Notes under the pieces: model-generated
Told to the model about the DNA's origin: nothing
Seen by the model: the letters and a program-made list of their open reading frames with translations, nothing else
Database searches by the model: none
Translations under genes and position numbers: made by a program
NCBI GenBank assembly: GCA_964503485.1
Contig: CAZDBH010000002.1
Span: forward strand, 508 to 64,507
DNA from: an uncultured Bradymonadales bacterium
GTDB taxonomy: Bacteria > Myxococcota_A > Bradymonadia > JAFGEP01
Direction of reading: 5' to 3'
DNA length: 64,000 bases
Part shown: one piece after another, positions 34,836-52,185 of the stretch
How positions within the stretch are numbered: position 1 is the stretch's first letter
How the letters are laid out: every line of letters starts with the position of its first letter

Positions 34836-34838
34836 GTC

Positions 34839-35165: not shown

Positions 35166-36637
35166 GCCGTCTTCTGTGGGCCAGCATTGCCGGAATCCTA
35201 TTTGCCCAAGCCTACCTCCACTCGGCCCCCTTCGCTCTGGCCGGTGCAGTCGCTCTGGGACTTGCGCTGAGGCCTCCCTTCGACCGGAATTGGCGACGGC
35301 AGATAGCGAGAGTCTTCATCGTTCAACAAATCTGGATCGCCCTGCACGGTTGGGGGTTCCTGCACTACGGCTGGAGGCTATATGTCGCCACGCTCTTCTA
35401 CTTCGCGCTTTCCGGCGCCCTGCTGTCGATTCTGGTGATCGGTTTCGCCCGCAGGCCTCGGGTAGGCCCGCTGCGGGTGGCCGCAGCTTGGATGACGGTG
35501 GAAGCGCTCCACCAGGTCGGATCCTTCGGCTTCCCGCTTTTTTTGGGCGGGACCCAAATCGAAATGCCGTGGCGCACCTCGATGGGCGTTATCGGGGCTG
35601 TCGGCCTGAGTGGTCTGATTATCGGGTTGGGCGTCGCTGCCACCCGTGCTCGCATGTCGGCCCTTCGCTGGGCAGCAGCCCTCGTTGTGTTTTCACTCTT
35701 GGGTCTGTGGCAGCCCGGGATAGAAGAGGTTGGCGAATCACAGGATGTAGCGATTGTTCAGGGCGGTGTCCCCAGTTGGTTCTACCAGATCGTGGATGAC
35801 TCGGAAGCGGCTGCCTATCTTGTCGAGGACCACTATTTCGGGCTCGCCGAAGAGGCATTTGTCGGCGGTCCTGATCTCGTCCTGCTACCCGAAGCTGCAC
35901 TCCACCACGCAATTGCCCAAACTGGTGACTATTCGGTTGATCCATTGTTTCGAGCCTCGGACAACCCAGAGAACGCAACGACCCAGCTTTTGACTGGAGC
36001 CTATCGAGAGACCTGGGTCGGAGACGATCTGCGCCTCTACAACTCGGCCCTCCTGCTCGATGCGTCAGACAGCCGGCACCTAATCGCTGTGGTCGACAAG
36101 CGTCTGCTGGCCCCCGTCGTCGAGTCCCTGTTTACGCCAGGAACCGGTGATGGTCTGGTCGAGGCCCGCGCTATGACGATCGGCGTGCTCATCTGCTTCG
36201 AATCGATCTATCCCAGAATGGGCAGGCAAGTTGCGGAATCGGCGAGCGTGGTAGCGATTCTCACCAACGACGCGGGCTTTGTACGAGCTCCAGTGAGCCT
36301 CACGCACGCCCGCCAGGGTTGGAGCCGAGCGATCGAACTGGGACGGCCGATCGTACGCTCTGCCCAAGCAGGTATCTCCTTCATCGTCGACCACCGGGGA
36401 CAGATCCAGGCCCAGCTCGACTTCTTCGAGCAAGGTGTTCTGCGTGGAACGGTTCAACCCACCACTGGCTGGACCTGGTTTACCCTCTTCGGCTTCATGC
36501 TCGCGCCGGTTGCGGGGTTACTACTCTGCCTCTTCATCGTTCTGGGTGACCGCCGGTTTGGAAAGCCCGCGGCGGTAGAGCCAGCCGAGGAGGCCAAGGA
36601 TGAGGGCGTAGCCGACAAGGAAACTGGCGTACCCTGA
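35162..36637 (+). CDS. lnt: Apolipoprotein N-acyltransferase (Lnt).
   Basis: N-terminal polytopic membrane region followed by a CN-hydrolase (nitrilase) domain with the catalytic-Cys context IGVLICFESIYP. Length ~490-510 aa. The start is ambiguous (35105 or 35162). Confidence 0.7.
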   Translation, partial: VSRLLWASIAGILFAQAYLHSAPFALAGAVALGLALRPPFDRNWRRQIARVFIVQQIWIALHGWGFLHYGWRLYVATLFYFALSGALLSILVIGFARRPRVGPLRVAAAWMTVEALHQVGSFGFPLFLGGTQIEMPWRTSMGVIGAVGLSGLIIGLGVAATRARMSALRWAAALVVFSLLGLWQPGIEEVGESQDVAIVQGGVPSWFYQIVDDSEAAAYLVEDHYFGLAEEAFVGGPDLVLLPEAALHHAIAQTGDYSVDPLFRASDNPENATTQLLTGAYRETWVGDDLRLYNSALLLDASDSRHLIAVVDKRLLAPVVESLFTPGTGDGLVEARAMTIGVLICFESIYPRMGRQVAESASVVAILTNDAGFVRAPVSLTHARQGWSRAIELGRPIVRSAQAGISFIVDHRGQIQAQLDFFEQGVLRGTVQPTTGWTWFTLFGFMLAPVAGLLLCLFIVLGDRRFGKPAAVEPAEEAKDEGVADKETGVP

Positions 36638-37378
36638 GACGTTGTGCATCGGACCCATCGCAAGCTCGCTGCCTCCGTGCTCACCCAGAGTCGAAATCGT
36701 GGCGATTCGAGTGCCGTTCACAAGCAGTGAGAAGGGCAGGGCCAGAACAACCAGAACCAGAAGTTGGCGCTCGCGAATCCGGAAAATTAGACCGAGAAGC
36801 AAGGTGTACAACGACAGTGCTGCCAACGTGTTGACCCCACTGCATGTCTCATCGACTAGGTTGTAGAAGGTAGGGGTGAGTATCAGGAGGTCTTGCTTTT
36901 GTACCTCGAAACCGAGGACCGTCAACCACACACAGGCCACGTTCGCCGACAAGTGTTGCAGCATCAGCTCGAATCGGGCCATCCATCCTGTAGTTAGAGG
37001 CGCCATCAAAATGAGTGGCGTGAGCGGCAGTAGGTAACGCCCGAGCAGTTCGCGTCCGCCGACTAGCCCAACAGCTGCCCCGACGGTGAGCCAAAACCCC
37101 ACAGCCCCGACGATCGGTTCATCCAACACCCAGGCGAGGCAGTTGACGCACAGGGCCAGTAACGTTGCGACGACAAGGACGTGCGAGGAGGTGCGTGAGC
37201 GGGTTCGGTCGTCGTCGGTTCGAAAACGGATCCAACAGGCGACGCCGGCGATAATCGGCATCATTGCGCTGAACGAAACGTCGATGAGTTCGTTGCTTCG
37301 CCACCAACCGAGGAGGTCTGTCAGGAATGGGACAGTCGAAGCGATGAGGACTACTGCGAAGGCGAGCCGGCGCATCAT
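36521..37378 (-). CDS. Exosortase/archaeosortase-family transpeptidase-like membrane protein.
   Basis: 8-TM-type protein of 285 aa with the family's catalytic-Cys motif (DETCSGVNTLAALS), an NxxR motif (LLVNGTRIATI) and a downstream His (GEHGG). It starts 11 bp after the stop of the 1365-aa gene, so the two are co-transcribed. Its 3' end overlaps lnt by ~117 nt. Confidence 0.6.
   Translation of the reverse strand: MMRRLAFAVVLIASTVPFLTDLLGWWRSNELIDVSFSAMMPIIAGVACWIRFRTDDDRTRSRTSSHVLVVATLLALCVNCLAWVLDEPIVGAVGFWLTVGAAVGLVGGRELLGRYLLPLTPLILMAPLTTGWMARFELMLQHLSANVACVWLTVLGFEVQKQDLLILTPTFYNLVDETCSGVNTLAALSLYTLLLGLIFRIRERQLLVLVVLALPFSLLVNGTRIATISTLGEHGGSELAMGPMHNVSGYASFLVGYALILGLLGWLYRRGLSKPAVTQNDEEAE
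36550..36575. other. Imperfect palindrome ccgccgg-tttggaaag-cccgcggcgg inside the lnt / exosortase convergent 3' overlap (possible bidirectional terminator, or a sign that one gene end is mis-called).
   Basis: Seen directly. Both convergent ORFs read through it. Confidence 0.3.
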
Positions 37379-37389: not shown

Positions 37390-40300
37390 TTAGTCAGCGC
37401 ACTCGCAGCTGTCGCTGCAGCTGCTGCACTCCCCAATATGGCCCGTATCACAGTCTTCGTTTACAGACCAAAGAACCTGGCCGGCCTTCGACTCGTCCTC
37501 TCCTTCACCCGAAGTCACTGCGCCGACTGTTCCACCGCAGGCATCGTCATTGATGAAGATCTTGTAATACGGGTTCGGGAAGCCGCCGCCATACGGATAC
37601 TGGCGTACCCGCACTTGGTAGTCGCCCGCCGGCAGGTCATAGAAAGCGAATTCACGGCCCGGGAAGTCCGCGACCGATCGCGACACCTGAGTCTCGCAGA
37701 CGTAGTGGTCGCTCTCTGGGTCCAATTCGGGCAGACAGGGGCAGTCCTCGTCCGCCGGGAAACCACACTCGTAAACAGTCTGGTCAATCCCATCCCGCAA
37801 CGGATCGGGATACAGTAGGGCAATCGCCTGGCCTGCTTCATCGAAGTGCCTGAGGTACAGTTCGATGTCGCCGCCTTCGGTGGTGAATGAGAACCAGTCA
37901 TCTTTGTCCCAGCTACAGAGCGAGCCCACGTGATCAGACGCGGAAGTTCCCGGCTCTAGAACACAGGTCTCGTCAGTACAACCGAGGTCGTTTGGTCCGG
38001 GATAGCGATCCCAATCTTCGGGCGTCAAATCCCACGGATCGTAACGTTCCGGCGGTGGACAGTCTCGCCCGCCCGCGCCGTTTACCTCGACCAAGATGTC
38101 GTAATCGGCCCCAGCCACGAGACTTCCCGCGTCGACCGTAAGCCGGTAGGTCGCTACAATCTTGCCCGCTGGGGCGTTGGCTGTCCCGTCGATGAGGATG
38201 TCGTAACAGGTGTTCGCTGACTCGCAAGCCGGTGTCACATCGACCCCGTACCGGAATTGATCGGAGCCTTCTCGGCCGAAGAAGACTTCGACTTTCTCGG
38301 CGTTATCCTCGGCGTCATCGCCGTTCATTCGAACGCGCACTGTATACCGGTCACCTTCGAGAAAACGTAGGTGGTAGACGTCTTCGTCGGAGGGACAAAT
38401 CACGAGATTATCAGCCGGCAAACATTCGCAGAACGCCGTGTCGTCGGTACCGCAGGTCGTCGTGAGGAACTCGCCGCAGCCGTCGCCCCAACCAGCCAAC
38501 AACGTGGCTCGGTGAAGCAGTTCTGGATGCTCGGAGTCGTTGGGCTCGAGTTCGTCATCCTCACAGGGCGTTTCAATGTAGTCGATCGTCAACGAGTAGG
38601 ACTCGCCGAGTACCGGGATGAGTTCATCATCGTCCGGGTTGCTGCTGGCGACCCGCACGAAATAGATGGCTGCTTCCCCGTCGACTGTGCCGCCCACTCG
38701 TTCGTAGATGGGTTCGTCGGTCAGAAGCACACCACTGGGCAGACCGGTTGTATCCATCTCGACCAACTCCCGATCCTCCCCGTCGAGTACCCATTCGTAG
38801 ATGGTCATTTCGAGGGCGTCGTCTTCCTGGAAGAGGGAGGCTTGCAGGAACCCTTCTGATGGGGCCCGGAAAATCTGGACCAGATAGAAATCCTCATCTA
38901 GATCCACGGAATCATCGACTACTGCTGGGCAGATGCGCGCTTCCTCGAAGGACGCGGTGGCAGGCCGACTCGGGATGATGAACTTGCTATCGGTCGGCAA
39001 GTCCTGGGCATTTTCTGGGGTATTGTTGTGTCGGTCGGCACCCAGCGCGATGCTATCATAGTAGTCTCGTTCACAGCGCGCCGTTCCCATCCCGCTCTCG
39101 AACCGAAAGGTGTAGGCCGCTTCTGCGCTCCCTCCGGGGATTTGCATACGGAAGTAGTACTCATCGGTGGCAGCCACGGACCGGTCCAGAATCCGGTCGT
39201 CTGTGTCGTCCAAGTCGGCCGGATTGTCCCAGGCGCCGGCAGAAACGATGGAGTCGGCTTCCAAATCGACACCCCCATCTGTACCCAAGTCCATTTGTAT
39301 TCCGGGATGACCGTCACGCGAATCAGTGACCGCTGTCAGGGTTTGACCGGCAAAGAGCACCATGCTGAAGAAGTCCACGTCGCCCGTGCACATGGTGAGG
39401 TCGGTGAAACTGCGGTCGACCAGGCGGCCGGCTGAGCCCAGAGGTGTAGCAGAAATCGTGCTGTTGTTCACCTCGAGAGGGTCTGCTTCGCAGAGGAACG
39501 GGCGGTCGAGCAGCACTTCGAGTGAGTAGTCGACGCACTCGAGACCGACCGTGAAGACTTGAACGAAATAGAGTTCGCTTTCGGGCACGAGGTAATCGTT
39601 AACCTGAACGTCGGTCGGTACTTCGGAATCGGTCGGTCGGAACACCACGTCCCCACCGTTGTTGAAAAAGGACATCGCTATGAAGCCCTCCGATTGCGCG
39701 TGCACCGATATGCGGTCGCCGGCGTTGAGATACATGACGTAGTGGTCGAAATCGGCGCCGGTTGACGCGGTAGCATCGGCACACCAGCTGTCCTCAGTGT
39801 CGTCACATGGCCTCAGATCAGTTGAGCCGGTGCAGTCCCGGAAGCTGACCACGGCGTCGCCAGAGTAGAATGGAATACAGGTAGCCGTAGAGCGGGTATC
39901 GTCGCGAATCACGTCCGTCTCGAGGGCATCGAGACACCCGCTCTGGCATCGGCCGGTGAGTGGATTGCAGGATTGACCGTCCGGGCAACTGTCCTCGGTT
40001 TCGTCGCTCTCTGGCGTACAGTCGACTTCACATTCTGGGGTCGAACAATGCGTACCCAGCGGGCACTCCTCATCTGCGACGCAGCCGCACTGATCTGTCG
40101 CGACCGAGCAAACCTGCCCGTCGGGGCAGTGGCACTCGTCGCCGTCACAGCCAGGTATGCAGCGCTGCAGTGTCGGTGAGCAGAATTCGCCAAGCGGACA
40201 CTCGTCGCAGGCTCCGTCCGGGTCGCAGCGCGGGATCCCGCAGTCACGGGTTTCGGGATCGCATATGAGTTCGTCGAAACAGGTGTCCTCGTCGGCCTCT

Positions 40301-41487
40301 GTTTCCGGATCGTCCGGTAAGCAGCCGTCCTCACAAAACTCACCGTTGCAGTACAACCCGTTGTAGTCGCCGCCATCCCAACAGTCTTCGTCAGTGGCGC
40401 ACTCCTCAGCGCAGCACACATGATCGGGGCAGCAGTGGGTGTCCTTTCCGCACTCGCCCGGTTTACAGCCCGGCGAGCAGACCGGATTGTCGAGCTCCAG
40501 GTCGCAGTACGTTCCGAACGGGCAATCCGCGTCTCCGTGGCAGCCGTCGATACAGGTGTGCGTGGCCAGATCGCACAGCGTCCCGGGCCGACAGGTATCT
40601 GACCCATCGTTGCGGATTCGGCATCCAGGCTGGCACGTCTCGGTCGACTCCTCGCAGTAGAACGCGCTGATCCTCCCGTCGTCGTTGCAAAACGCATCAC
40701 ACGTTTCTGGATCGTCGTCTTCGGCGCAGGTGCACGGTGTCGCCTCACAGGAGTGCGACTCTGTGTCGCATTGCAGGCCGCTACCACAATTGTCCGGTTC
40801 GCTTCGGCAGCCCTCTAGGCAGACGTCCAAATCAGGATCGCAATAGAAGCCCTCTAGGCAGATTTCGTCACCGCGGCAGGCACTACCCTGGCATCGTCGA
40901 GAGACCTCGTCGCAGACTAAGGGCACCTCCCCAACGGGCGCGATTGGGCAGTTATTGGGCTCAATCCGGCAGCCTTCCTCACAGCCCGACTCAGGATCGC
41001 AGTATTGGTGATCCTCGCAGTCGTCATCTTCTTCACAACCAGCAACGCATTCCCTCGAGTTTGGGCTACAGTGAAAATCGTCTTCGCAGGTATTGGGATA
41101 GAGGTCGCAGTCACCGCAGTTGTCGGGATCGACCCGACAACCGGGCTCGCACTCTCCGTCGTCGCAGTATTGACCCGCGGCGCAATCTTCGTTCTCCGTC
41201 GCGTCGGTGCAGCCCGATCGTTCGTCCACGGTGTCAGGAGTTACGTCTACATCGCCCGAGTCAGGAATATCCATGTCCCCCGCGTCGGTCGGTGGGCGAA
41301 CACACAAACCAGCGTCGTCACAAACAAACGGTGCCGAGCAGTTGCATTCGAAGCCCGCGTCGTTGGTTGGCGGAGTATCGCAGTCGCAGGCCTGGAACCA
41401 AGCTAACGTGAGCGGGATGGCGAGGACCAGGAATCGGGCCCTGATCTGTTCGGATACCGAACGGGATCCGTCTCGTCGCATGTGCAC
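37390..41487 (-). CDS. Giant (1365 aa) secreted Cys-rich repeat protein: ~10 N-terminal Cys-rich modules (C..GCR…C..G..CD) followed by multiple PPC (pre-peptidase C-terminal)-like beta-sandwich domains.
   Basis: Signal peptide (LVLAIPLTLAWFQAC). Repeats such as EGCRIEPNNCPIAP, EGCRSEPDNCGSGLQCD, PGCRIRNDGSDTCRPGTLCD. C-terminal half with DxD(F/W/Y)(F/Y) PPC signatures (GDVDFFSMVLFAGQTLT, DEDFYLVQIF, KDDWFSFTTEGGDIELYL). Confidence 0.7.
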   Translation of the reverse strand: MHMRRDGSRSVSEQIRARFLVLAIPLTLAWFQACDCDTPPTNDAGFECNCSAPFVCDDAGLCVRPPTDAGDMDIPDSGDVDVTPDTVDERSGCTDATENEDCAAGQYCDDGECEPGCRVDPDNCGDCDLYPNTCEDDFHCSPNSRECVAGCEEDDDCEDHQYCDPESGCEEGCRIEPNNCPIAPVGEVPLVCDEVSRRCQGSACRGDEICLEGFYCDPDLDVCLEGCRSEPDNCGSGLQCDTESHSCEATPCTCAEDDDPETCDAFCNDDGRISAFYCEESTETCQPGCRIRNDGSDTCRPGTLCDLATHTCIDGCHGDADCPFGTYCDLELDNPVCSPGCKPGECGKDTHCCPDHVCCAEECATDEDCWDGGDYNGLYCNGEFCEDGCLPDDPETEADEDTCFDELICDPETRDCGIPRCDPDGACDECPLGEFCSPTLQRCIPGCDGDECHCPDGQVCSVATDQCGCVADEECPLGTHCSTPECEVDCTPESDETEDSCPDGQSCNPLTGRCQSGCLDALETDVIRDDTRSTATCIPFYSGDAVVSFRDCTGSTDLRPCDDTEDSWCADATASTGADFDHYVMYLNAGDRISVHAQSEGFIAMSFFNNGGDVVFRPTDSEVPTDVQVNDYLVPESELYFVQVFTVGLECVDYSLEVLLDRPFLCEADPLEVNNSTISATPLGSAGRLVDRSFTDLTMCTGDVDFFSMVLFAGQTLTAVTDSRDGHPGIQMDLGTDGGVDLEADSIVSAGAWDNPADLDDTDDRILDRSVAATDEYYFRMQIPGGSAEAAYTFRFESGMGTARCERDYYDSIALGADRHNNTPENAQDLPTDSKFIIPSRPATASFEEARICPAVVDDSVDLDEDFYLVQIFRAPSEGFLQASLFQEDDALEMTIYEWVLDGEDRELVEMDTTGLPSGVLLTDEPIYERVGGTVDGEAAIYFVRVASSNPDDDELIPVLGESYSLTIDYIETPCEDDELEPNDSEHPELLHRATLLAGWGDGCGEFLTTTCGTDDTAFCECLPADNLVICPSDEDVYHLRFLEGDRYTVRVRMNGDDAEDNAEKVEVFFGREGSDQFRYGVDVTPACESANTCYDILIDGTANAPAGKIVATYRLTVDAGSLVAGADYDILVEVNGAGGRDCPPPERYDPWDLTPEDWDRYPGPNDLGCTDETCVLEPGTSASDHVGSLCSWDKDDWFSFTTEGGDIELYLRHFDEAGQAIALLYPDPLRDGIDQTVYECGFPADEDCPCLPELDPESDHYVCETQVSRSVADFPGREFAFYDLPAGDYQVRVRQYPYGGGFPNPYYKIFINDDACGGTVGAVTSGEGEDESKAGQVLWSVNEDCDTGHIGECSSCSDSCECAD

Positions 41488-41571
41488 TTTCCTTTAACGG
41501 TGTACCTGGGGTGGCTACCTAAGCCTGACCACAAGGTAATGTAGCGATCACCGCGAGTGGAAGCAAGGAAG

Positions 41572-43137
41572 CTAAGGCCCGGTTGTTCCCGGTACCCGAT
41601 CGAGAGGTTGAGGCGCAGTAGGCTCCGGCATGTCCGGTTGAATAGAACGCACAAGTGGAAGAGTGTCCCACTGGATTCGTCCGTTGCGGACCCAGCCCAG
41701 TAGCACGTTTTCTGCACCGGCCGGATTGGAACAGATGGCCCTCGTACGAGCAGCGACAACCACGTGTGGATGGTCCATCGACTCGAGGTCGTCGCTCCAG
41801 GTCACAGAGTACGAATACCGGACCGAACTCGGCCGGAATGAGAGCAATTCCCAGCCGTTTTCTGACCAGCTGTCCTCTGTGGCGCGGGGTCTAGATATGC
41901 ACGGTGTGATGGCGGGCGTTCGAGGAAGCGACAGTTGGATTCCCCGCGAAAAGGCCTCGCCGACCGCTTGGCTCAACTCCAACAACAGTGCTTCGCCTTC
42001 AGACTCTTGTATCCACTTGATTCGATTGGCAATCGCGTTACCGAGTAAACTACCGACCATCATCGAGGTCACCTCGACCGAGGGTGATGCTGTGAACGTC
42101 GGCCCTCGAGCGCCAACACTCGCGACCATCCCCTCAAAGTACCTGAGGTCGTGTGGGTCCGCATTGCTCGCGACCACATCAGGAAACGCCGTCGCAGTCG
42201 CTGACGCTACGCTAGCCTCTGAAAACACGGCGTGGAGTGTCAGGTTCAAGACGTTTTCTGACGGAATCGTCCCACTCAGTTCGACCAATCGCGCCCGTTC
42301 CGAGGCCAAGAGAATGACGCCGACAGGCGCAAGCCGTTCACCGCTGTCCAAGAGGTGCACTGGTAGGTCCGGATCGAGAGCTTGGCCGAGGACGGATCGG
42401 TTGGCCAAAGTCCCACTCGAGGCTTGTTCCGCCCACTCGAGGATTCGACGCTCCCCGTCTGGCGCCACCCCGCGGCCCACGACGAGGAACTCCCCTCGAA
42501 GAATGAACACGCCGTTTCCGTAGAACTGCATTTCCGGAATATCACCCAACACGGGGTGAGCGACCTGCGGGGCATCCGGAAGCCAACCTGCTGTCGAGTA
42601 GTCACCTTGGCAGGCAAAAATCGACTCGCCGCCGCCCGCACCGAAGGCGCACGCTTCACTTGCCTCTAGAAACGGCGTGAAGTGTTCATCCAGAAACGCC
42701 AAATTGGCAGGAGTGAAAGACACGGGGTTGTTGTAGCGAAAGACCTCCTGCCAAGAATCATGAACTGACTCCATCTGAAGGACGCTGAGGTGAAAGTAAA
42801 GGGCGGACTCGCACACCTCGGGCAGAAAGCCGAGCAACGGAGCGCCCTGCCCGCTCGCCTGGAACAAGGTGCCGGCCGCCCCTTCGGGCATTTCTGCGAC
42901 CGGAATCTCCAGCTCGAAGTAGGCGGAGATGGGTGAAGGTTCTACGTCTTCCTCTGGCGTGACCGTGGGCTCCGCGTGCTCAGGGGCGGGCTCACTGGTG
43001 GTGGCTGCCGGGGCGACTGCCGGAGTCGGTTCCGGCTCTCCAGTCCCGCTCTGCTCCGTATCTTCCGCTGATCCGCATCCGAACGTGCCGACAAGACACA
43101 CGGTGATCATCGCTGTGAACGCTATTCTAACTGCCAT
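41572..43137 (-). CDS. Hypothetical lipoprotein.
   Basis: Probable start MAVRIAFTAMITVCLVGTFGCGSAED (lipobox). Pro/Glu/Thr-rich linker, then a ~450-aa domain with no recognised motifs. The track start 43179 would overlap the divergent neighbour. Confidence 0.5.
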   Translation of the reverse strand: MAVRIAFTAMITVCLVGTFGCGSAEDTEQSGTGEPEPTPAVAPAATTSEPAPEHAEPTVTPEEDVEPSPISAYFELEIPVAEMPEGAAGTLFQASGQGAPLLGFLPEVCESALYFHLSVLQMESVHDSWQEVFRYNNPVSFTPANLAFLDEHFTPFLEASEACAFGAGGGESIFACQGDYSTAGWLPDAPQVAHPVLGDIPEMQFYGNGVFILRGEFLVVGRGVAPDGERRILEWAEQASSGTLANRSVLGQALDPDLPVHLLDSGERLAPVGVILLASERARLVELSGTIPSENVLNLTLHAVFSEASVASATATAFPDVVASNADPHDLRYFEGMVASVGARGPTFTASPSVEVTSMMVGSLLGNAIANRIKWIQESEGEALLLELSQAVGEAFSRGIQLSLPRTPAITPCISRPRATEDSWSENGWELLSFRPSSVRYSYSVTWSDDLESMDHPHVVVAARTRAICSNPAGAENVLLGWVRNGRIQWDTLPLVRSIQPDMPEPTAPQPLDRVPGTTGP

Positions 43138-43238
43138 ATGAGTCTCCCAACGGACCGAGGCGACTCTACCATTTGTCATCCCAAAGTGAAGACGGATTTG
43201 AAGCGGTTGAGTTCAACGTCTACAATCGGGGCTCCATG

Positions 43239-45308
43239 TTGTGGCAACAAAAATCTCGCTACATTGCTTGCGTCACAGCGGCCCTGCTCGTTGGATGCTC
43301 GAGTCAGAACGAGATCTCCTCGGACCAATCCGACAGTTCAGCTGTGGTAGACTCGACCGACACGGCCCAACAGACCGATACCGAGCCAACCGATTCGTCA
43401 GCTGCTGACCTAGTCGCCCAAGATACCTCCGACGCATTGAGTTCGGACGCTGCTGAGGATCCCATCCTCACTGACCGGACCCAATTGGATAGGGACTCAG
43501 ACGGCGCGCTGGATCGACGACAAGACAGCGAACTGCACAATGTCGACCAACCGGATGCGTCAGCGGAACTCGATACTCCCGTCGACAGCGGCCCGGATGT
43601 CATTTCGGAGTTCGACATCCCGTCGGATCCGGATATCACGACCGATCCTGTGGATGGTCAAGACCCCGTGCTCGACCAGGACCTCGAATCAGACACCCCC
43701 GATCTCGCCGACGAGGACGTTCGGCCACCTATCGATTGCCCCGAGTCAGACTGGGAGGTGCAGTTCCAAGACCGCACCGACGAGGTCGGGCTTGCACCAT
43801 GGTCGACCAGAGGTCAGCCCCTCGGAGCCGTTGTCGTCCTAGACGTCAATGGCGACATCTACCCTGACCTGTTTTCGCCTTCGGACGGGGAGGTCGCTCA
43901 CCTGTACATCAATCAAGGTAGCTGGACATTCGTCGAAGCAACCGAAGGAAGTGGAATCGAAGACATCGCGCTCGGCGAGTTTGCCGCCGCGAGAGACTTC
44001 GATAATGACGGCATAACCGATCTGTTCGTATCAGCCGGGTGGCGAGACTACATCTTCCTCGGGGACGGGGAGGGCCATTTCGAGGATGTCAGTTCCGAGT
44101 GGGGCTTGGGCGCTTCTGTCGCGAGTCGGGAAGCGTTGGCTGTGGCCGATTTTGACGGCAATGGCTGGCTGGACGTCTACGAGAGCCGTGGAACGGTTCC
44201 TGTCTCGACTACCGGGAAAGCAGACCGGATTTTCTTCAACCAAGACGGCTATTTCACAGCCCAACTCCTCGATGCGATGGGCCACCCCAAAGCTGCCGCC
44301 GCTGTCGACTGGGACAGGGACGGTTGGGTCGACTTGTTCATCGGCAACGACTTCGGCTGGATTCTCGAAGGCAATGCGCTCTTGCGAAACCTCGGTGAAG
44401 CAGACGAGGAAGGTGATTGGCGCTTCGAAAACGTGGCATCCGAGTGGGATGTTGCCCAAGAACTCGCGAGCATGAGCGCCACCGTGGCCGACTTCGACAA
44501 CGACGGGGACCTAGACGCCTACGTAACCAATATGTGCGACAACCTCTTGCTGGTCTCCGAGGATGGCGTCGCCGTGGACCGTGCCCGCGAGTTTGGTGTG
44601 AACGCGGGGTACTTCTCCGATCCAGACCCACCCGAGCCCGAGCCCAACTGGCCTGAAGTCGATGAGGGCCGCACGCTGTTTTTCGAAACGTACTGCAGAG
44701 ACCGTGGACCTGACGACTGGGTCCTCACCAGCTGGGCCTCGGTCTTTGCCGATTTTGACCAGGACGGTTGGCAAGAACTCTTCGTAGCAAACGGAAACCT
44801 CGGGCATTCCTACGGCTATCCGGACGGCACGGCGCAGCCAAACCTGCTCTTCAGAAACCGCTGCGGCCAAGCCTTCGAGCCCGTGGTTTCCGAGTGGCCC
44901 GACCTCCGAGCGCCCTCCAGAGGTGCTGTCGTCGCCGACTTCGACGTTGACGGAGACCTCGATCTAGTTTGGGTCGAAGCTGGTCATGGTTCCGACAGAG
45001 GCCTACGCTTTTTGTCGAACGAAAGCGTCGCGGGAAACTGGTTGAAACTCGAGCTCGAGGCGACGAGCACCCATCCTTCGGCGATCGGCACCAGTGTCAC
45101 CCTCGCCAGCGGGTCAATCGAACAATACCGGCAACTCGATGGCGGCCAAGGGTACTTGGGGCAGCATGAGGCGATCGTGCATTTCGGATTGGCAGACGTC
45201 ACCGCAGCTGACACGATCACAATCCGCTGGCCTAGCGGTCGGACCCAGGTCCTCGAAGGGGTCGATGCGAATCAAACGCTCCGTTTGGTCGAACCAGCAG
45301 TCGAGTGA
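43239..45308 (+). CDS. CRTAC1-family protein: FG-GAP/VCBS beta-propeller repeats with a C-terminal ASPIC/UnbV domain; lipoprotein.
   Basis: Lipobox (AALLVGCSSQ). Repeated FDNDG…D, FDGNGWLDVY, DRDGWVDLFIGND, DQDGWQELFVANGN FG-GAP-type Ca-binding repeats. C-terminal NWLKLELEATSTHPSAIGTSVTL…RQLDGGQGYLGQHEAIVHFGL matches the UnbV_ASPIC signature. Confidence 0.7.
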   Translation: MWQQKSRYIACVTAALLVGCSSQNEISSDQSDSSAVVDSTDTAQQTDTEPTDSSAADLVAQDTSDALSSDAAEDPILTDRTQLDRDSDGALDRRQDSELHNVDQPDASAELDTPVDSGPDVISEFDIPSDPDITTDPVDGQDPVLDQDLESDTPDLADEDVRPPIDCPESDWEVQFQDRTDEVGLAPWSTRGQPLGAVVVLDVNGDIYPDLFSPSDGEVAHLYINQGSWTFVEATEGSGIEDIALGEFAAARDFDNDGITDLFVSAGWRDYIFLGDGEGHFEDVSSEWGLGASVASREALAVADFDGNGWLDVYESRGTVPVSTTGKADRIFFNQDGYFTAQLLDAMGHPKAAAAVDWDRDGWVDLFIGNDFGWILEGNALLRNLGEADEEGDWRFENVASEWDVAQELASMSATVADFDNDGDLDAYVTNMCDNLLLVSEDGVAVDRAREFGVNAGYFSDPDPPEPEPNWPEVDEGRTLFFETYCRDRGPDDWVLTSWASVFADFDQDGWQELFVANGNLGHSYGYPDGTAQPNLLFRNRCGQAFEPVVSEWPDLRAPSRGAVVADFDVDGDLDLVWVEAGHGSDRGLRFLSNESVAGNWLKLELEATSTHPSAIGTSVTLASGSIEQYRQLDGGQGYLGQHEAIVHFGLADVTAADTITIRWPSGRTQVLEGVDANQTLRLVEPAVE

Positions 45309-45333
45309 AAAAGAGGTCGTGCTGACCCGATGC

Positions 45334-48300
45334 CTAGAGGCAGCTGGGACAGCGAGGTATCGGAGCGAATTGGTACTCAAAAGGCTGATCCGCGTCCGAC
45401 GCGATGTGGACATAGATAGTCCGTTCGTCGGAGCCGGCGTTGATTTCGGGGGTGCGAATTCGTTTGTTTTCGACCACCGCTGTCTCATCGGTGACTGTCG
45501 CCAGAACTGTGCCGTCAGAATCGACGATCTCGAACACGAAGTCAGGTAATGGGTCGGTACTGCTCGGTTCGAAGTCGAAGGACAGATTCCAGTCGCCGCC
45601 CCTAGGCGGCGGAACGGTATAGGCCAACCAATCCTCATCCGTCCCTGTCGGGCACATGGCGAAGGCACCGCCTTGCCAGTTGATTTCGTAGGCTGTCCCA
45701 CGTGTGTCGTTCGCTCCCTCAGGAACGTCCGACGGGTCGATGAAACACTCGTCCTGGCTGACCCGCATGCAGTAATCGGTTGTGTCGCCGCCTTCGAGCT
45801 GAAAGTCGTACGTTCCAGCCTCTACGTAGCCCTCCATCACAATCTCGTCGACCTGGAACGATGCCATTTCGACTGCGGGGACAACGTCGCCGTCCTGCAG
45901 GACTCGGACAGATAAGTTGGAGAGGTCGTCCCCAGTAATAATGAGCCGTAGGATGCCGTCGTCGACGGTCACGCTGTAGAAATCCGAGTTGTCAGGACAG
46001 CGATTTGAGCACACGTCCTCCTCGTCGAGGACGAGCTCCACAGCGTCCTCGATCTCGTGATTGTCGCGCTCCGAGACGCACATGGGCGCCGCACTGGCCA
46101 GCAGAGTATAGTCCACCGGTTCGCCGAACTCTTCGTCGAGCGACGCGACCACATAGTAAACCGTCTCGCTCGGATAGGCTCCGACGGCCAGTTTCATCGG
46201 CATGAAGCGCGTGTCGTTAATCTGGGCGAGGACCTCGCTGTCGCTGTCGTAGATCGCGACCCGAAAGCGTGCCGCACGCTGAGCTAGACTCGCCTCGGTC
46301 GCCAAATCCCAACTCTCGTCCAGGAACTTGATTCCCAGCCCAGGCCCGCACGGGGGCTCTGAATCCTCTTCGCACCGGAAGCAGTCCGGGTCGCCACTAT
46401 CCGGATCACAGGTCACTACGGGCCCGACTGACGTCTGAAGCTGGAAGATATCCCTGTCCCCCGGGCACAACCGGAAAGCGTTCGGCTCACCGCTCTCGAC
46501 GTCGCGACGCAGCGCCACGTCGCCGTCGATCGGGTCGTCGAATGAATCGGGGCCACCTTCAAATTCATCGTTTTCGCACAGCGGTAGTTCTTCGATGGCC
46601 AACTGGTATGGCAGGCCGATCGATCCCACGTCTTCTTCACTCGAAACCCTCAGGTAATAGGTGTAGGCGTCTTCCGTGGAATTGGAAACCGCAAGTTGGC
46701 CCGGCGGAGTGTCGCCCGAAACGGTCACGTACCGCAGCTCAGTCTCGTCGGATGTGTGGAGGCATGCGACGAGCTCCGTCGGATTGCCTGTTGCGCCTTC
46801 GATCGTGACGAGCAACCCGGTCGTCGTCTCCAGAGTAAGGTAATCTTGTTCGTCCTGACAGATTCTAAACTCGCCGACAGTACCATCAAACGGTAACGGG
46901 TCGCCGGACCGGTCACTTGGCACCGAAGCGCCAGCGAAGCTCTCGTTCGGTTCCGACGTATCGTTGATGCATCCGCGCTCTTCCCTCTCGATGGTGAGTT
47001 GGTAGTCGGCGCCTTCGGAGTCGATGACGCCATCGGCCGAGACCTGGATGAGATAGGTTCCGGGGGACAATTCTGGCGCAAACAAGGTAACACCCTCACC
47101 GGAATCGCTGGTGTCCGACAGGGCCCCATCACAGGTCCAGGCCCCACTGCTGCCCGTGACGTCGCTCCCGGTGCAGCCTGCAACCGCAGTGGAACCGTCG
47201 GCCTCGTAGAGGTCGACCTGGAAACTGGCTCCCGATTCGGAACTCAGCCCAATGTAAATCTCGCCATCGGTCGACACGATTTCCTGGGAGTACCAATCGG
47301 ATTGAGCCGGGCAGAGATTGGCGCCATGGGCACCGCTGGACAGCGCAAATGGCTCAGACTTGGTGTCGTTCGGTTCAAACCCATCATCGATACACGGCGA
47401 GTCGTCCGACAGCGTATGCCACAACTTGTAGCGCAAACCGTCATCGCCAACACTAGCCGATACCCACACATAGTAGGTCGCAACCGGTAGATTGAAGGTC
47501 CAGAACCCCATGAAACCCAGGCTGCCCTCCACAAAGGAGTTTTCTGCCACTAAAACTCCGTCGCCGTCGAGCACGACGACCCGCACTGGGTTGTCCCCGG
47601 GGCTGTGCTGAATGCTGACACTCAGGTTTTGGCCCTCGACGGTGTTCACCACCCGATAGACGTCGACGTCGCCTGGGCAAAGGACTTGTGCACGCGAGTC
47701 GGACCGCTCTGGAATCAGCGGCAGACCTTCACCGATGCTGTCGTTGGGCTCGAACGGATCGAGGACGCACCCGTCGCTTTCACTGCTGATGCTCAAAACG
47801 TACGCTCTGCCCCGTTTCGGTGCGGCCGTCGTCGTCACTTGAACGTAGTAGGTACCCGCCGCCAAACTATTGAGAGACACCTCGCTTCCGTCGTCACCCA
47901 GTTCCTCCTCGGCGCCGTCCAATAACGTGATTGTGAATGGCCCTGGGTCGATCGGAGTCAAACTGGCGGTTATCGCCACCGGGCCGAGTGGGACCTCGAT
48001 TTTGTAGACATCAGCGTCCTCACAGGCCAGAGCGGCCAATGACGCCGTCGACTCCCCGAGAACTGTCGCAGTCGCGGGTGTGTCATTGCCCCCCTCTCCT
48101 TCGTATTGGTCGGTACAATCGAAAGGCTCATCGACAACGATTGACAGCGAGTAGTTTTCGCCGAGCTCGGATGGGTCAGTGGCTGTCACCCGAACGTAGA
48201 ACGTGCCGGGGTCGAGCTCGGTCTCAGATAGGCTAATCAGCGCGCCGCTTCCTGTCTGGCTGCTAATCTCGGTGCCGTCGTCTTCGAGAAACTCGAGTCG

Positions 48301-51300
48301 CATCGATACTGACGGAGCGACTCGACTGACAGACAGATCCAAACTGGCGGGACCTTCACCGACGATGACTTCGAAAACGTCGCTATCACCTTCGCAGGCG
48401 GTCAGGTTGAGAAACCCGGATTCGGCGCCCAGGAAGTCGCTGGCGGTCTCGATGGTGTCGTTGTCTTCGAGAGAGTCGGTGCATTCCAGCCGCCCGATTT
48501 CAACCGATAGCGAATAGGCGATTCCTGCAACAGGAATTCCGTCGCTCCCCGAAACGTGAACTGAGTAAACCCCACCGATCAGATCCGCCATGGCGAGGGT
48601 CTTGTCTGCATTGGTGTCCGTCACAGGCCCGGCAACTGTCTCGCCCTCAGAGTTTAGAATCACGAGTGTAAGTGGTGCCGAGGTGTCTGACTGGTGAATC
48701 GAGACCGTCACGTCCTTGGTGCCAATCACGTCGAAAGCGAACCAGTCGTCGTCTGCCTCGCAGAGCGACAAGGGCACATCCACGTCGCCAGCGATGTAGA
48801 CCGCCTGTTCAGCACTCTCGTTGGGCTCCAGGCGGTCACGGCATTCAGTGACCACCTCTGAAGTCGCGAGCAGAGTGAATGGCAGTCCGTTGATCGGGGC
48901 AGTCGCCTCGGGTTCGACCTTCAGCAGGGCCATGCCCTCCCAGGCCGACGATCGTACGATGACGGTGCTGCTGTCGCTCGTGGAATCTTGCGCGATCCAA
49001 ACCAGGTCTTCGCCGTCCAGCTGATAGAGCGTCAACTCGAGGTCGGCGGTCGCTCCGGTGTTGTCCAGAGTGAAACTGAACACCCGCTCGTCATCGACGG
49101 GTAAGATGTACCACAACTCGTGGCCGTCACAGACCTTTCCGGTGGTCGTTCGATCGAGGACTAGGCTCTGTGCGAATCCAGACTCACTGTTGGACGAAGG
49201 CTGACAGACATCGACGCTGCTCAAGATCACATCGAACCCGTAGGCGTCCCCCAGCTCCTCGGTCGACTCGTTGGAGTCAATCTCGATGATCACCGCTTGC
49301 CCCGTAAGGAAGTCACCCTCGACGATGCCCGACCCGTTCTGATTGTCGCGTAACACCAGGTCGTCTTCATCGCCGTCTGGGGGGAGCTCGTAGAGACGCA
49401 CTGCGCCTGATGCGCCGTCTTCGAATCTGACGTCCACCTCGACATGAGTCGGGCCACCGAGGCTGACCCACCAGTGATCGTTGTCTTCGGGGCACAGCCG
49501 CTCACAGAAGTAGGCTGGGTCGTCGGGCGATTCCGCATCGCACAGAGTTTCGGGCAGGACGGCCCAAGAGAACTCGAAGCCATTGTTGGGCTCTCGGCCC
49601 TCGTCGATGCATTCGACGTCATCCAGAGCCAGACGCGCAGTCAGTTGATACGTCGCCCCACCCAGAACCGGAATGAAACCGGTCTGTCGAACGCGAAGAT
49701 AGTAGAAACCCGCGGTCATGCGTTCATCGACGATACTGACCGCGCTTGCCGTACGAACACACTCCGACCCTCGGATGCACTGCTTGACCAACTCGAGCTC
49801 GCCGCCGTCTGTTTCGCGCAGAAGGTCCAGACCGAAGGAACTGGCAAAAAGCACCGGATTGACGGTTACGTTCAGAGTCGCGTCACGCCGGACCTCGAAC
49901 CGATAGTAGTCGACGTCTTCGACGCAAAGGACCGCGTCATCGCCACTGTCGAAAGTGGATGAACCGCTCAGAATCGAGGTGGCATCGTCCGACACGTCGT
50001 TCTCCTCGAATCCGTCAGTGCAGCGTGGCGTGGCGAATTGGAAGTCGATGTCGTAGTCCACGCCCTCGACATCCGCCCCATCGAGGCAGTCGAGGTTGGT
50101 GACCTGCACAGCATAGGAGCCGCTATCGAGCAGTCCCTCTACTTCGAGCTCCTTCGATGGGTGACTATTCTCAACCGTTTGAAGCGCCTCGCCGCTCGGG
50201 GCAAAGAGAGTGAGGCGAAGGGTGCAGGCCGCCGAGGACTGCTCGAAACTCACCCGGAGGTCGCCTCCAGTGATTCCCTGAGTGACGAACCAGTCCTCAT
50301 CATCTTGGCACGCCGTCAGGCCGTCGAAACTCTCTCCCGACTCCGCAAAAGTCGCACTCTCACGCTCATTGTCGGGCTCCAAGTCGTCGTCTGGGCAGGA
50401 GCCAAATCGGCTGTCCGTCCGGTAGAGTTCGTAGCCGCTCTCGTCTGACGAGGAGTGTCCCCTCACGGCCACGTACCAGGTCGATTCTTCCGAGGTCGGG
50501 CCCGCAAAGATCAGTTCCGTCTGCTCCCCGCTATCTACCCGGTCGACCTCGCTCCGGGTTTCGTCGTAGAGGATCAAGTCGAGGTTTTCCCCGGCTTCGG
50601 CGATGAAGAGGGTGATCTCAACCCGTTCGTCAGGCGCGACGTCGAAGATCCAGTAGTCAGTATCGTCTGCGCAGAGGGTGAGGCCCCGGGTCGGGCCGTC
50701 CTCGAGTCGCCTCGATTGACCGAACGAGTTGTTCTCTTCGTACTCGTCAGGTCGGCACTCATGCGACGGATAGCGCTCTACCCGGGTGTTGTACCCGACT
50801 TGTGAGCATCCCTGGTCATCGGTAATGCCCGCTCCGAAAATCGAGATATAGTACGTGCCGTCCACCGTGACCGGGTAGGCAATCTGAAGGAACTGGCCCG
50901 GTCCATCGATGGTCTCGTGGTGCTCGACGAGCGGTAAGCCATCCCAATTGGGACTATCATGAAGTTGAACGGTAATCTCACCTCGGTCGGGGGTCACCAG
51001 GACGTTTAGGGTCTCGCCGGCATTTCCAACCACGCGGTATCGGTCGATATCGGCGCCACACAACACGCCGAAGAAGAGGCTTTCAGAAGAGGGCGCGACT
51101 GTGTCGCCATCATCGATATCGGCCTCGTCGAAGCACTCGCAGTCGACGCAACGCCCGTTCTCTGGGTTACACATCGGCAGGTCGAAGAGTTCACAGTCGA
51201 CGTTCCGATCGCAGCTCGCCACGCAATGCTCGTCGACACAAACTAGGTCTTCGAGACCCGCACAGCTGAAGTCCGATTCACACCGGCAGCTCCGAGTCGT

Positions 51301-52185
51301 CAGATCGCAGGGCTGGTCCTCGGAGCAATCGGCATTGCTGCGGCAACCGGGGCGACAACGGTCGATGTCACACACATAACCCACAGGACACAGATCATTA
51401 TGCGGGTCACACAGTAGGCGCTCGCAGTATCGGAGCTCGTCGTTGCACACCCAATCGGGCTCGTTCCCCCACGCCGTCGCGCAATCGTCCTCGTTTTCGG
51501 GCGTGTCGGGGTCGTCAACTCGGCAACCCGACCGACATTCGGCCGCCTCTTCTTCGCCTTCCTCCGAAAAGCAAAACTCGAGGTTGCTGCACTCGTCGTC
51601 CGCCGTGCAGGCATAGGCCACACAGGTGTGCTCCTCAGAGCAGAACGAGTCGCTACCGCAACAATGCGAGATGTCGGCGTTCGGGCATTCCTCGGCCTCC
51701 AGACGGCAGCCCACGAGGCACCGTTCGGTCTCTGGGTCGCACCAGGTACCATCGTCGCAGGCGGAGTTGTCTTCGCAGCCTGGCTCACAGCCGGGCAACG
51801 TGTGATTCTCGACGCATGTACGGGTCTCGATATCGCAGCTGTGGCACGACGCTTCGCAGCTTCCCGCGCCGGGTCGGTCCCCAGCTCGGCATCCATTCAG
51901 GCAGTCGCCCGATTCGATGTCGCAATACAGACCCTCATCGCACGCGTCGTCTTCTTCGCATGGCACGAAGACATCAATTTCTTCCGTCGCGTCAGGCTCG
52001 TCCTGGACGTCCTCGTCAGGCTCAGCGTCGATATCCGCGTCCGCATCGCCGGTCGCCGTATCGGCAGTCGGAGGGGTCACCGGAGGAGGATCTTCGCCGC
52101 ACGATGCGGCAGCGAGCAGGACGACAACTAAAACACCACAGATCGATCGCAAATGTTGGGAGCAGATCAAGCTAGAATCCGGCAT
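45334..52185 (-). CDS. Giant (2283 aa) secreted lipoprotein: N-terminal Cys-rich modules (paralogous to those of the 1365-aa protein) followed by a long tandem array (>12) of PPC-like domains.
   Basis: Lipobox (LLAAASCGED). Cys-rich NGCRAGDRPGAGSCEASCHSCD, VGCRLEAEECP, SGCRVDD…, PGCRSNADCSEDQPCD modules. Then repeated C..D.D(Y/W/V)(Y/F)..(V/I) PPC signatures (DIDRYRVVG, DTDYWIFDVAPDERVEITLF, DVDYYRFEV, DDDWFAFDVIGTKDVTVSI, DSDVFEVIVG, DADVYKIEVPLG, DVDVYRVVNTVEG…). Confidence 0.75.
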   Translation of the reverse strand: MPDSSLICSQHLRSICGVLVVVLLAAASCGEDPPPVTPPTADTATGDADADIDAEPDEDVQDEPDATEEIDVFVPCEEDDACDEGLYCDIESGDCLNGCRAGDRPGAGSCEASCHSCDIETRTCVENHTLPGCEPGCEDNSACDDGTWCDPETERCLVGCRLEAEECPNADISHCCGSDSFCSEEHTCVAYACTADDECSNLEFCFSEEGEEEAAECRSGCRVDDPDTPENEDDCATAWGNEPDWVCNDELRYCERLLCDPHNDLCPVGYVCDIDRCRPGCRSNADCSEDQPCDLTTRSCRCESDFSCAGLEDLVCVDEHCVASCDRNVDCELFDLPMCNPENGRCVDCECFDEADIDDGDTVAPSSESLFFGVLCGADIDRYRVVGNAGETLNVLVTPDRGEITVQLHDSPNWDGLPLVEHHETIDGPGQFLQIAYPVTVDGTYYISIFGAGITDDQGCSQVGYNTRVERYPSHECRPDEYEENNSFGQSRRLEDGPTRGLTLCADDTDYWIFDVAPDERVEITLFIAEAGENLDLILYDETRSEVDRVDSGEQTELIFAGPTSEESTWYVAVRGHSSSDESGYELYRTDSRFGSCPDDDLEPDNERESATFAESGESFDGLTACQDDEDWFVTQGITGGDLRVSFEQSSAACTLRLTLFAPSGEALQTVENSHPSKELEVEGLLDSGSYAVQVTNLDCLDGADVEGVDYDIDFQFATPRCTDGFEENDVSDDATSILSGSSTFDSGDDAVLCVEDVDYYRFEVRRDATLNVTVNPVLFASSFGLDLLRETDGGELELVKQCIRGSECVRTASAVSIVDERMTAGFYYLRVRQTGFIPVLGGATYQLTARLALDDVECIDEGREPNNGFEFSWAVLPETLCDAESPDDPAYFCERLCPEDNDHWWVSLGGPTHVEVDVRFEDGASGAVRLYELPPDGDEDDLVLRDNQNGSGIVEGDFLTGQAVIIEIDSNESTEELGDAYGFDVILSSVDVCQPSSNSESGFAQSLVLDRTTTGKVCDGHELWYILPVDDERVFSFTLDNTGATADLELTLYQLDGEDLVWIAQDSTSDSSTVIVRSSAWEGMALLKVEPEATAPINGLPFTLLATSEVVTECRDRLEPNESAEQAVYIAGDVDVPLSLCEADDDWFAFDVIGTKDVTVSIHQSDTSAPLTLVILNSEGETVAGPVTDTNADKTLAMADLIGGVYSVHVSGSDGIPVAGIAYSLSVEIGRLECTDSLEDNDTIETASDFLGAESGFLNLTACEGDSDVFEVIVGEGPASLDLSVSRVAPSVSMRLEFLEDDGTEISSQTGSGALISLSETELDPGTFYVRVTATDPSELGENYSLSIVVDEPFDCTDQYEGEGGNDTPATATVLGESTASLAALACEDADVYKIEVPLGPVAITASLTPIDPGPFTITLLDGAEEELGDDGSEVSLNSLAAGTYYVQVTTTAAPKRGRAYVLSISSESDGCVLDPFEPNDSIGEGLPLIPERSDSRAQVLCPGDVDVYRVVNTVEGQNLSVSIQHSPGDNPVRVVVLDGDGVLVAENSFVEGSLGFMGFWTFNLPVATYYVWVSASVGDDGLRYKLWHTLSDDSPCIDDGFEPNDTKSEPFALSSGAHGANLCPAQSDWYSQEIVSTDGEIYIGLSSESGASFQVDLYEADGSTAVAGCTGSDVTGSSGAWTCDGALSDTSDSGEGVTLFAPELSPGTYLIQVSADGVIDSEGADYQLTIEREERGCINDTSEPNESFAGASVPSDRSGDPLPFDGTVGEFRICQDEQDYLTLETTTGLLVTIEGATGNPTELVACLHTSDETELRYVTVSGDTPPGQLAVSNSTEDAYTYYLRVSSEEDVGSIGLPYQLAIEELPLCENDEFEGGPDSFDDPIDGDVALRRDVESGEPNAFRLCPGDRDIFQLQTSVGPVVTCDPDSGDPDCFRCEEDSEPPCGPGLGIKFLDESWDLATEASLAQRAARFRVAIYDSDSEVLAQINDTRFMPMKLAVGAYPSETVYYVVASLDEEFGEPVDYTLLASAAPMCVSERDNHEIEDAVELVLDEEDVCSNRCPDNSDFYSVTVDDGILRLIITGDDLSNLSVRVLQDGDVVPAVEMASFQVDEIVMEGYVEAGTYDFQLEGGDTTDYCMRVSQDECFIDPSDVPEGANDTRGTAYEINWQGGAFAMCPTGTDEDWLAYTVPPPRGGDWNLSFDFEPSSTDPLPDFVFEIVDSDGTVLATVTDETAVVENKRIRTPEINAGSDERTIYVHIASDADQPFEYQFAPIPRCPSCL

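Follow-up and report, generated by a model that had tools for sequence, protein, structure and literature searches.

Two giant lipoprotein-type proteins built from Cys-rich modules and tandem PPC-type domains at a locus of an uncultured Bradymonadales bacterium

Two giant genes with a common architecture

The window analysed here is a stretch of 64,000 nucleotides from an uncultured Bradymonadales bacterium (contig CAZDBH010000002.1 of assembly GCA_964503485.1), and all coordinates given for this locus are positions within it. Its interval 37390-52185 comprises four genes: gene A, which encodes a protein of 1365 amino acids (aa), a 535-aa gene, an FG-GAP/ASPIC-UnbV gene, and gene B, which encodes a protein of 2283 aa. 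A and B are distant paralogs (BLASTP E 9e-25) and have the same architecture, as the initial annotation of the locus had recognized: a lipoprotein-type N-terminus is followed by a series of Cys-rich modules and then by an array of PPC-like domains. The parts of both proteins are listed here with the basis of each assignment (ORF, open reading frame; HMM, hidden Markov model; CBD, collagen-binding domain; AF2, AlphaFold2; TM, transmembrane).

37390..41487, minus strand: gene A (1365 aa), lipoprotein-type, with 8 Cys modules, 5 PPC-like domains and a Cys-rich C-terminal tail (ORF, translation)
41386..41487, minus strand: signal peptide of A with a lipobox-like Cys (…LTLAWFQAC, aa ~1-34; sequence reading)
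39937..41211, minus strand: Cys-rich putative stalk of A, 8 modules of ~48 aa with 8 invariant Cys each (aa 93-517; Cys periodicity, HMM)
38083..39942, minus strand: PPC/CBD-like domains 1-4 of A (aa 516-1135; iterated HMM, AF2 and Foldseek of domain 2)
37558..38070, minus strand: divergent fifth PPC-like domain of A, with extra cysteines (aa ~1140-1310; weak here, detected in orthologs)
37393..37557, minus strand: C-terminal Cys-rich tail of A, no TM segment (kept in orthologs)
45334..52185, minus strand: gene B (2283 aa), lipoprotein-type, with 5 Cys modules and 15 PPC-like domains (ORF, HMM)
52099..52185, minus strand: signal peptide of B with a lipobox (…VVLLAAASC, aa 1-29; sequence reading)
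51142..51960, minus strand: Cys-rich putative stalk of B, 5 modules (aa 76-348; module HMM)
45361..51141, minus strand: array of 15 tandem PPC/CBD-like domains of B (aa 349-2275; iterated HMM)

The C-terminal repeats are PPC-type beta-sandwiches

PPC-like domains were mapped with five seed domains from B and then with an iterated HMM. B contains 15 of them end to end, the thirteenth bearing a Cys-rich insertion of ~40 aa, and A contains four clear domains and a weaker fifth, in agreement with the arrays of 5 and more than 12 reported initially. The fifth A domain reaches a domain E<0.01 in the orthologs P0004-P0006 and can be aligned at both the invariant Cys pair and the DxDW motif. Over the whole of B, the Pfam PPC model (PF04151) scores 54.8 bits against a cut-off of 25.9, which is the sum of weak domain matches. 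A profile built from the 20 domains matches the CBD structure 5IKU (s3a-s3b) of the collagenase ColG at E 2.7e-11, with profile positions 8-123 of 125 aligned; further matches are 1NQD/4HPK, at about 5e-6, and 3JQW. The AF2 model of A domain 2 has eight strands (predicted local distance difference test, pLDDT, 89.3; predicted template modelling score, pTM, 0.85) and is aligned by Foldseek with probability 1.0 to 1NQD, 3JQW, 5SV5 and 4DZG, at target-normalised template modelling scores of 0.66-0.74; these structures are the CBDs of ColG and ColH, the PPC domain of a B. anthracis collagenase, and PliG. The C-terminal repeats are therefore solidly identified as PPC-type beta-sandwiches. The PPC superfamily includes collagen-binding domains as a recognized subclass (PMC4356367).

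Two cysteines are invariant in 20/20 domains, one at the domain start before a D..E.ND motif and the other before a DxD-aromatic motif. The motif columns are also well conserved (D 18/19, E/D 19/19, N 15/19, D 15/20, and D 19/20 before the aromatic residue), and they line up with ENND/EPND and D..DYY in ColG, where these segments bind Ca2+. We took the identity of the putative Ca2+-ligand residues in A and B from the published ColG structures, in which Ca2+ turns the s3a-s3b linker from helix to strand (PMC4356367). From these alignments we infer that the domains are a disulfide-stapled, Ca2+-binding variant of the PPC fold, in which the Cys pair may staple the Ca2+-binding N-terminal strand.

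The closest characterized counterparts are the CBDs of clostridial collagenases (ColG s3a/s3b, ColH s3; 1NQD, 2O8O, 5IKU, 3JQW), which share with A and B the beta-sandwich fold, sequence homology and the E.ND and DxD-aromatic motifs; ColG, like A and B, carries its CBDs in tandem copies. The differences are nonetheless considerable. The collagenases have one or two CBDs attached to a peptidase, whereas A and B have 5-15 copies and neither a peptidase nor a PKD domain; scans with Pfam and NCBIfam models found no peptidase domain in either protein, and a peptidase context is no requirement of the Pfam PPC model. ColG has no Cys at the second site of the Cys pair, the first site lying outside the aligned region, whereas the pair is invariant in A and B. 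Finally, the collagenases are secreted enzymes, whereas A and B are predicted to be lipid-anchored at the N-terminus. In a marine predator of bacteria, collagen itself is unlikely to be the ligand.

A Cys-rich module with eight invariant cysteines

The Cys-rich regions of both proteins are periodic in their Cys spacing, and segmentation gave 8 modules in A and 5 in B; the figure of ~8-10 modules for each protein, as first put forward, holds for A but is too high for B. In an alignment of 46 modules from A, B and five A orthologs, eight Cys are invariant and the consensus reads CxxDxDCxxGxYCDx5CxxGCRx3DxCx5Cx3TxxC. An HMM built from A modules only finds the B modules in register at 57.6 bits, compared with a maximum of -53.8 bits in 200 composition-preserving shuffles, and an HMM built from B modules only finds the A modules at 59.9 bits, compared with -98.4 for shuffles. 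The internal periodicity noticed initially is far above chance and is no artefact of composition. Structure prediction of a single module, which the initial annotation had suggested, gave a confident double hairpin: the AF2 model of A module 3 has a pLDDT of 89.4 and consists of two beta-hairpins.

The affiliation of this module is less clear-cut than that of the PPC-like domains. Its profile matched no PDB sequence even at E<=10, and a Foldseek search of the PDB with the module model gave none at E<=0.001; the top match was chain B of the DCC-Draxin complex 5Z5K, which we take to be Draxin's Dickkopf-like Cys-rich domain. A word-indexed search of a large protein database with the module alignment returned no scored match, this method being ill-suited to profiles of 48 aa. 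Among domain models, Dickkopf_N (PF04706) gives weak matches in 25/46 modules (best E 9e-6, below the 25-bit cut-off) and DUF7107 sub-threshold matches in 7/46; Dickkopf_N, the Draxin Cys-rich domain and DUF7107 are all alike to the A/B module in Cys spacing and in a C..D.DC..G.YC motif. Similarity to myxobacterial Cys-rich repeats, also raised at the outset, holds up as a loose resemblance, the nearest model being that of the TraA-type repeat, TIGR04201, with weak matches in 13/46 modules (best E 8e-4, all below the 25-bit cut-off); the TraA model itself matches 3/46 weakly. The family originally named, TIGR02232, was rejected, with no match in the whole proteins at E<=0.1 nor in the 46 modules at E<=1. 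In contrast to TIGR04201, the A/B unit is double, with 48 aa, 8 Cys and a GCR junction, and its relation to that family is one of resemblance, not membership. No existing domain model captures the 8-Cys module.

N-termini, composition and C-terminal tails

At the N-terminus of each protein lies a hydrophobic stretch that terminates in a lipobox-like Cys (LTLAWFQAC in A, LLAAASC in B). The A orthologs keep the equivalent Cys (GLQAC, GLAAC, ALSAC, NPGC), the B orthologs keep the lipobox (LFAVGAC, LWCMGC), and a Cys following the hydrophobic region is shared by A, B, all of their orthologs and the 16 members P0007-P0022 of the wider family. By this pattern of signal peptide, lipobox and invariant +1 Cys, A and B are predicted to be bacterial lipoproteins, consistent with the lipoprotein/secretion signal first read in both. 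An acidic Pro/Thr-rich linker of ~40-60 residues lies between the signal and the Cys modules.

The composition of the two proteins is extreme. Asp and Glu make up 22% of A and 21% of B and Lys and Arg 5%, compared with 13% and 12%, respectively, in a cytoplasmic kinase encoded in the window, and the net charge is about -230 for A and about -370 for B. Cysteines number 110 in A and 96 in B and are concentrated in the N-terminal quarter.

Comparison of orthologs shows a conserved C-terminal tail in the A family, acidic and rich in Cys (ACGG…W…E[ED]C[DE]…C…C.C[DE]) and lacking any TM segment; in the distant A ortholog P0006 this tail has weak matches to TIGR02232 (17.2 bits, cut-off 20.8) and to DUF4215 (16 bits). 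The C-terminus of B shows no conservation among its orthologs. A tail of the PEP-CTERM/MYXO-CTERM type (motif, TM helix and basic cluster) is found neither in A (…CSDSCECAD) nor in B (…PRCPSCL), and a six-frame ORF scan of the window for such tails gave none of relevance and none beside the A and B genes. A CAAX-like reading of the two C-termini was also rejected, because the Cys positions are inconsistent among orthologs and the B tail is unconserved.

Orthologs and the stability of the repeats

We compared the locus with two contigs that carry A and B orthologs in synteny, L001 and L002, and, for the exosortase discussed below, with a more distant genome, L010. Full-length A orthologs with 80-33% identity were found, all on contigs from metagenomes or metagenome-assembled genomes (MAGs), one Bradymonadales MAG being the only named source. 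B orthologs of 2293 aa in L002 and 2354 aa in L001 occupy the same position. A scan of the GTDB species-representative contigs with the single protein gave no match; with the ortholog alignment the sole match was the Bradymonadales MAG JAFGEP01.

Among orthologs at 33-80% identity the unit counts stay the same: those of A have 8 modules, with 4-5 PPC-like domains detected, and those of B have 5 modules followed by 15 PPC-like domains. When each unit is compared with those of the 33%-identity ortholog, the closest one is that at the same position for 7/8 modules and 4/4 PPC-like domains of A, and for 12 of the first 13 PPC-like domains of B. Sibling PPC-like domains share 9-24% identity, and Tandem Repeats Finder detected no nucleotide tandem repeats inside the repeat regions. 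Judged from these sequences, the repeats are old and positionally fixed, with no recent duplication.

A widespread class of PPC-array lipoproteins

When 1.84 billion representative proteins were searched exhaustively with the HMM of the PPC-like domain, 30,227 matched at E<=1e-3 and 1,777 at E<=1e-30. The best 150 matches have 6-55 copies each (median 12), and in 67/150 the PPC-like domains cover >=80% of the length. Examples made almost wholly of this domain are P0023 (6725 aa, 55 copies), P0024 (3913 aa, 32 copies) and P0026 (4428 aa, 33-35 copies), of which 87-98% of the length is PPC-like. Long PPC arrays without a protease domain, considered atypical in the initial annotation, are on these numbers anything but rare. 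Array proteins often begin with lipoprotein-type signals, and many have poly-Asp linkers after a lipobox-type N-terminus. They look like a large unannotated class of lipoproteins.

Sixteen distant relatives of A (P0007-P0022) follow the order of a lipobox, roughly 5-29 Cys modules and 0-5 PPC-like domains. Together with P0023, these metagenomic PPC-array lipoproteins have the same domain types and order as A and B, and differ from them in copy number. Across the superfamily the numbers of Cys modules and PPC-like domains vary widely, so that modules must have come and gone over long timescales. The architecture of A and B is thus real, old and stable, PPC arrays are common in metagenomes, and the domains are of known types. 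That A and B are anciently diverged paralogs within a widespread class of giant lipoproteins is, taken jointly with the whole of the mechanism proposed below, somewhat likelier to be right than wrong.

A possible surface adhesin or binding scaffold

Food for interpretation is what such proteins might do. The reading we favor, with moderate confidence, is that of a lipid-anchored surface adhesin or binding scaffold, in which a disulfide-bonded stalk carries a Ca2+-stiffened rod of binding domains. The first step of this model is read from a sequence pattern, the others from domain homology and analogy. By virtue of the lipobox signal the protein would be exported and lipidated at its N-terminus, and thereby anchored in a membrane, most likely the outer membrane. 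The acidic Pro/Thr-rich linker would come next, followed by 8 (A) or 5 (B) double-hairpin modules, presumably disulfide-bonded, that could form a stiff and protease-resistant stalk. The distal part would be a rod of 5 or 15 PPC/CBD-type beta-sandwiches with Ca2+-type motifs, in which the Cys pair would staple the linker. In a Ca2+-rich saline habitat this strongly polyanionic rod could be rigid, and its diverged binding surfaces might recognize prey cells, matrix polymers or particles. Bradymonadales are reported to be contact-dependent predators from saline habitats (PMC7460792), and an adhesin would fit this lifestyle.

A precedent for the stalk is found in Myxococcus xanthus, where the Cys-rich repeats of TraA have been proposed to form a rigid stalk presenting a distal binding domain (PMC3325183). 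TraA and the proteins described here have in common tandem small Cys-rich repeats, a half-unit of the C..D.DC..G..C type and an assignment to the cell surface of Myxococcota, which for A and B is a prediction. They differ in polarity: TraA has a C-terminal MYXO-CTERM anchor and a distal PA14 domain, whereas A and B have an N-terminal lipobox and distal PPC-like domains.

Several observations weigh against an adhesin. The PPC fold is not confined to adhesion, being found also in the lysozyme inhibitor PliG and in the pro-domains of proteases. Single domains fall below the Pfam PPC threshold (8/20 match, best E 0.0011), and a Pfam PPC scan of A gave no match at all. Moreover, the E.ND motif is missing in domains 1, 6, 14 and 15 of B and in domains 1, 3 and 5 of A.

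Alternatively, A and B might be structural components of the envelope or matrix rather than specific adhesins, serving as a polyanionic coat that binds Ca2+, as a spacer resembling an S-layer or a capsule, or as a biomineral or ion buffer. This is the main competing explanation, and we regard it as possible, though rather unlikely. The extreme acidity and the Ca2+-type motifs in most domains would suit such a coat, as would an architecture fixed over long evolutionary time, the saline habitat (PMC7460792) and the conserved envelope neighbors of the locus, namely an OmpA-family protein, a FadL/PorV-like barrel and a 427-aa protein with a weak match to an outer membrane protein (OMP) beta-barrel. 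However, if the repeats were purely structural, one would expect greater uniformity than the 9-24% identity of the sibling domains, the characterized members of the fold bind ligands (CBDs, the C-terminal domain of C. perfringens enterotoxin, PliG), and the domain scans detected no self-assembly domain.

Current understanding is not overturned by these results. Nevertheless, they provide a testable domain map for two giant 'hypothetical' proteins from an uncultured lineage of predators and, if A and B are indeed surface adhesins, candidates for the contact step of Bradymonadales predation. Additionally, Pfam misses the PPC domains of the 1365-aa protein, and the 8-Cys module is covered by no model; given that domain libraries under-call both parts, the alignments from this analysis could seed better models.

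A conserved exosortase-family gene next to gene A

The gene immediately downstream of A encodes a member of the exosortase family and is listed here together with the positions, in each genome, of a conserved group of membrane enzymes to which it belongs.

36521..37378, minus strand: exosortase-family gene (285 aa, unclassified subtype), 11 bp downstream of A (Pfam Exosortase_EpsH, 131 bits)
32874..37378 in the window, 14022..18354 in L001, 14072..18465 in L002, 1744..3439 in L010: membrane-enzyme trio loci

The trio consists of the unclassified exosortase, convergent with and overlapping an Lnt-like CN-hydrolase, and then a CPBP/Rce1-like protein of 617-663 aa with a long N-terminal extension. 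In L001 and L002 the order is B, A and the exosortase-family gene, with convergent Lnt and the CPBP/Rce1-like protein; beyond CPBP the syntenic genes encode a DUF4398 protein, an OmpA-family protein, a 427-445-aa protein of no assigned family, a FadL/PorV-like barrel, a TPR protein and a kinase-AAA_16 protein. The exosortase start lies 11 bp after the A stop in our window; between the two genes there is an overlap of 8 bp in L001 and a gap of 15 bp in L002. The exosortase scores under all NCBIfam Xrt subtype cut-offs and keeps motifs that look catalytic (DETCSG, NGTR and a His).

One may therefore ask whether A, and perhaps B, is a cargo or partner of this divergent exosortase, which with the Lnt-like acyltransferase and the CPBP (Rce1-like) protease would form a dedicated envelope-sorting or anchoring pathway operating without a PEP-CTERM signal. 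In favor of this idea, the exosortase is tightly linked to A in all three loci while the A orthologs differ as much as 33-80% identity allows, Lnt and the CPBP protein follow in each of them, the exosortase retains its catalytic-looking motifs and fits no named Xrt subtype, and A ends in a conserved Cys-rich tail with a C-x-C-[DE] motif. Still, a homolog search with the exosortase gave 3 matches only, and one of them, L010, has no giant neighbor: there, a 45%-identical exosortase is convergent with an Lnt-like gene (44% identity), keeping this partner, but follows an amidase gene and not a giant lipoprotein. Conversely, no exosortase is found beside the wider-family members P0010, P0014 and P0018, and the pairing of 8+5 and 5+15 paralogs beside an exosortase was seen only in this Bradymonadales lineage (L001 and L002, compared with the P0010, P0014 and P0018 loci). 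The CPBP protein does not match MrtP, the Bradymonadales myxosortase model (bioRxiv 10.1101/2023.06.07.544157). Since neither A nor B has a C-terminal motif, TM helix and basic tail, no ORF of the window ends in PEP-CTERM-like fashion, the C-terminus of B is unconserved and the pairing is lacking at the P0010, P0014, P0018 and L010 loci, the link to the exosortase is a lead of low probability. A compound version, in which the 48-aa 8-Cys double-hairpin module is a distinct unmodelled family and A is in addition coupled to the translationally linked exosortase (with the Lnt-like and CPBP proteins) in a non-PEP-CTERM anchoring route, perhaps via its Cys-rich C-terminus, seems to us slightly more doubtful still.

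Other Cys-rich proteins of the window

Two further Cys-rich proteins are encoded in the window.

22423..22584, minus strand: Cys-rich head of a 600-aa Big_5 protein, two C-x5-C-x5-C-x4-C units
18145..20724, minus strand: 859-aa Cys-rich/DUF4397 protein

Their domains agree with those proposed initially: DUF4397 in the 859-aa protein (33.6 bits, cut-off 30.6) and an Ig-like domain, Big_5, in the 600-aa protein (52.7 bits). The view that both are headed by the module of A and B, and that five proteins reuse it, could not be upheld, as the window encodes four Cys-rich proteins, two of which (A and B) share the module. In the 859-aa protein the module was undetected (module HMMs -28 and -15 bits; hhalign probability 1.7%), and in the 600-aa protein it is marginal (8.0 and 0.9 bits; hhalign probability 61%). 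Half-module HMMs were likewise negative or marginal against both proteins. The head of the 600-aa protein scores 17 bits with TIGR04201 (cut-off 25) and 20.7 bits with DUF7107 (cut-off 24.6).

The initial annotation had read the locus as a hotspot of ongoing domain shuffling or intragenic duplication, with one Cys module spreading among five genes; the presence of four Cys-rich secreted proteins within 35 kb and the range of copy numbers in the superfamily (about 5-29 Cys modules, 0-15 PPC-like domains) would speak for it, but because unit counts are identical in orthologs at 33-80% identity, nearly all units are closest to their positional counterpart and not to a sibling, sibling identity is low, the repeat regions have no nucleotide tandem repeats and the module HMMs miss the 859-aa protein and barely detect the 600-aa one, we consider it highly improbable.

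Neighboring genes

The two genes between A and B are the following.

41572..43179, minus strand: 535-aa putative lipoprotein, no family match
43173..45308, plus strand: FG-GAP/ASPIC-UnbV protein

A counterpart of the 535-aa lipoprotein gene (502 aa) sits between A and B in L002 as well, and the FG-GAP/ASPIC-UnbV gene is found between them in this window only. Given that B and A are directly adjacent in the distant L001, both genes look like later insertions into the A/B pair.

Divergent from gene B, a giant ORF occupies 52697..64000 on the plus strand, with an ATG at 52697 and no stop before the window end (>=3767 aa). Its N-terminus is signal-peptide-like, and a 6766-aa Laminin_G_3 protein is encoded at the counterpart position of L001; the ORF contains neither Cys nor PPC-like modules, and Pfam models gave no match to it at E<=0.001. 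Scanning the whole window for Rfam families and tRNAs likewise gave no match.

On the other side of the trio, the OmpA-family gene (31156..32286, minus strand) is split into a 179-aa ORF, with a lipoprotein N-terminus and TSP3-like DxDxDG repeats, and an 89-aa ORF with the OmpA C-terminal domain. The gene is intact in L001 and L002 (351 and 352 aa), and the split is probably a frameshift or an assembly error in the acidic repeat. Next to it, 28547..31150 (minus strand) encodes a FadL/Toluene_X-like barrel, with weak N-terminal similarity to the PorV/PorQ family, beside the 427-aa protein, whose OMP beta-barrel match is its only one and weak; this pair is syntenic with the locus in both L001 and L002.

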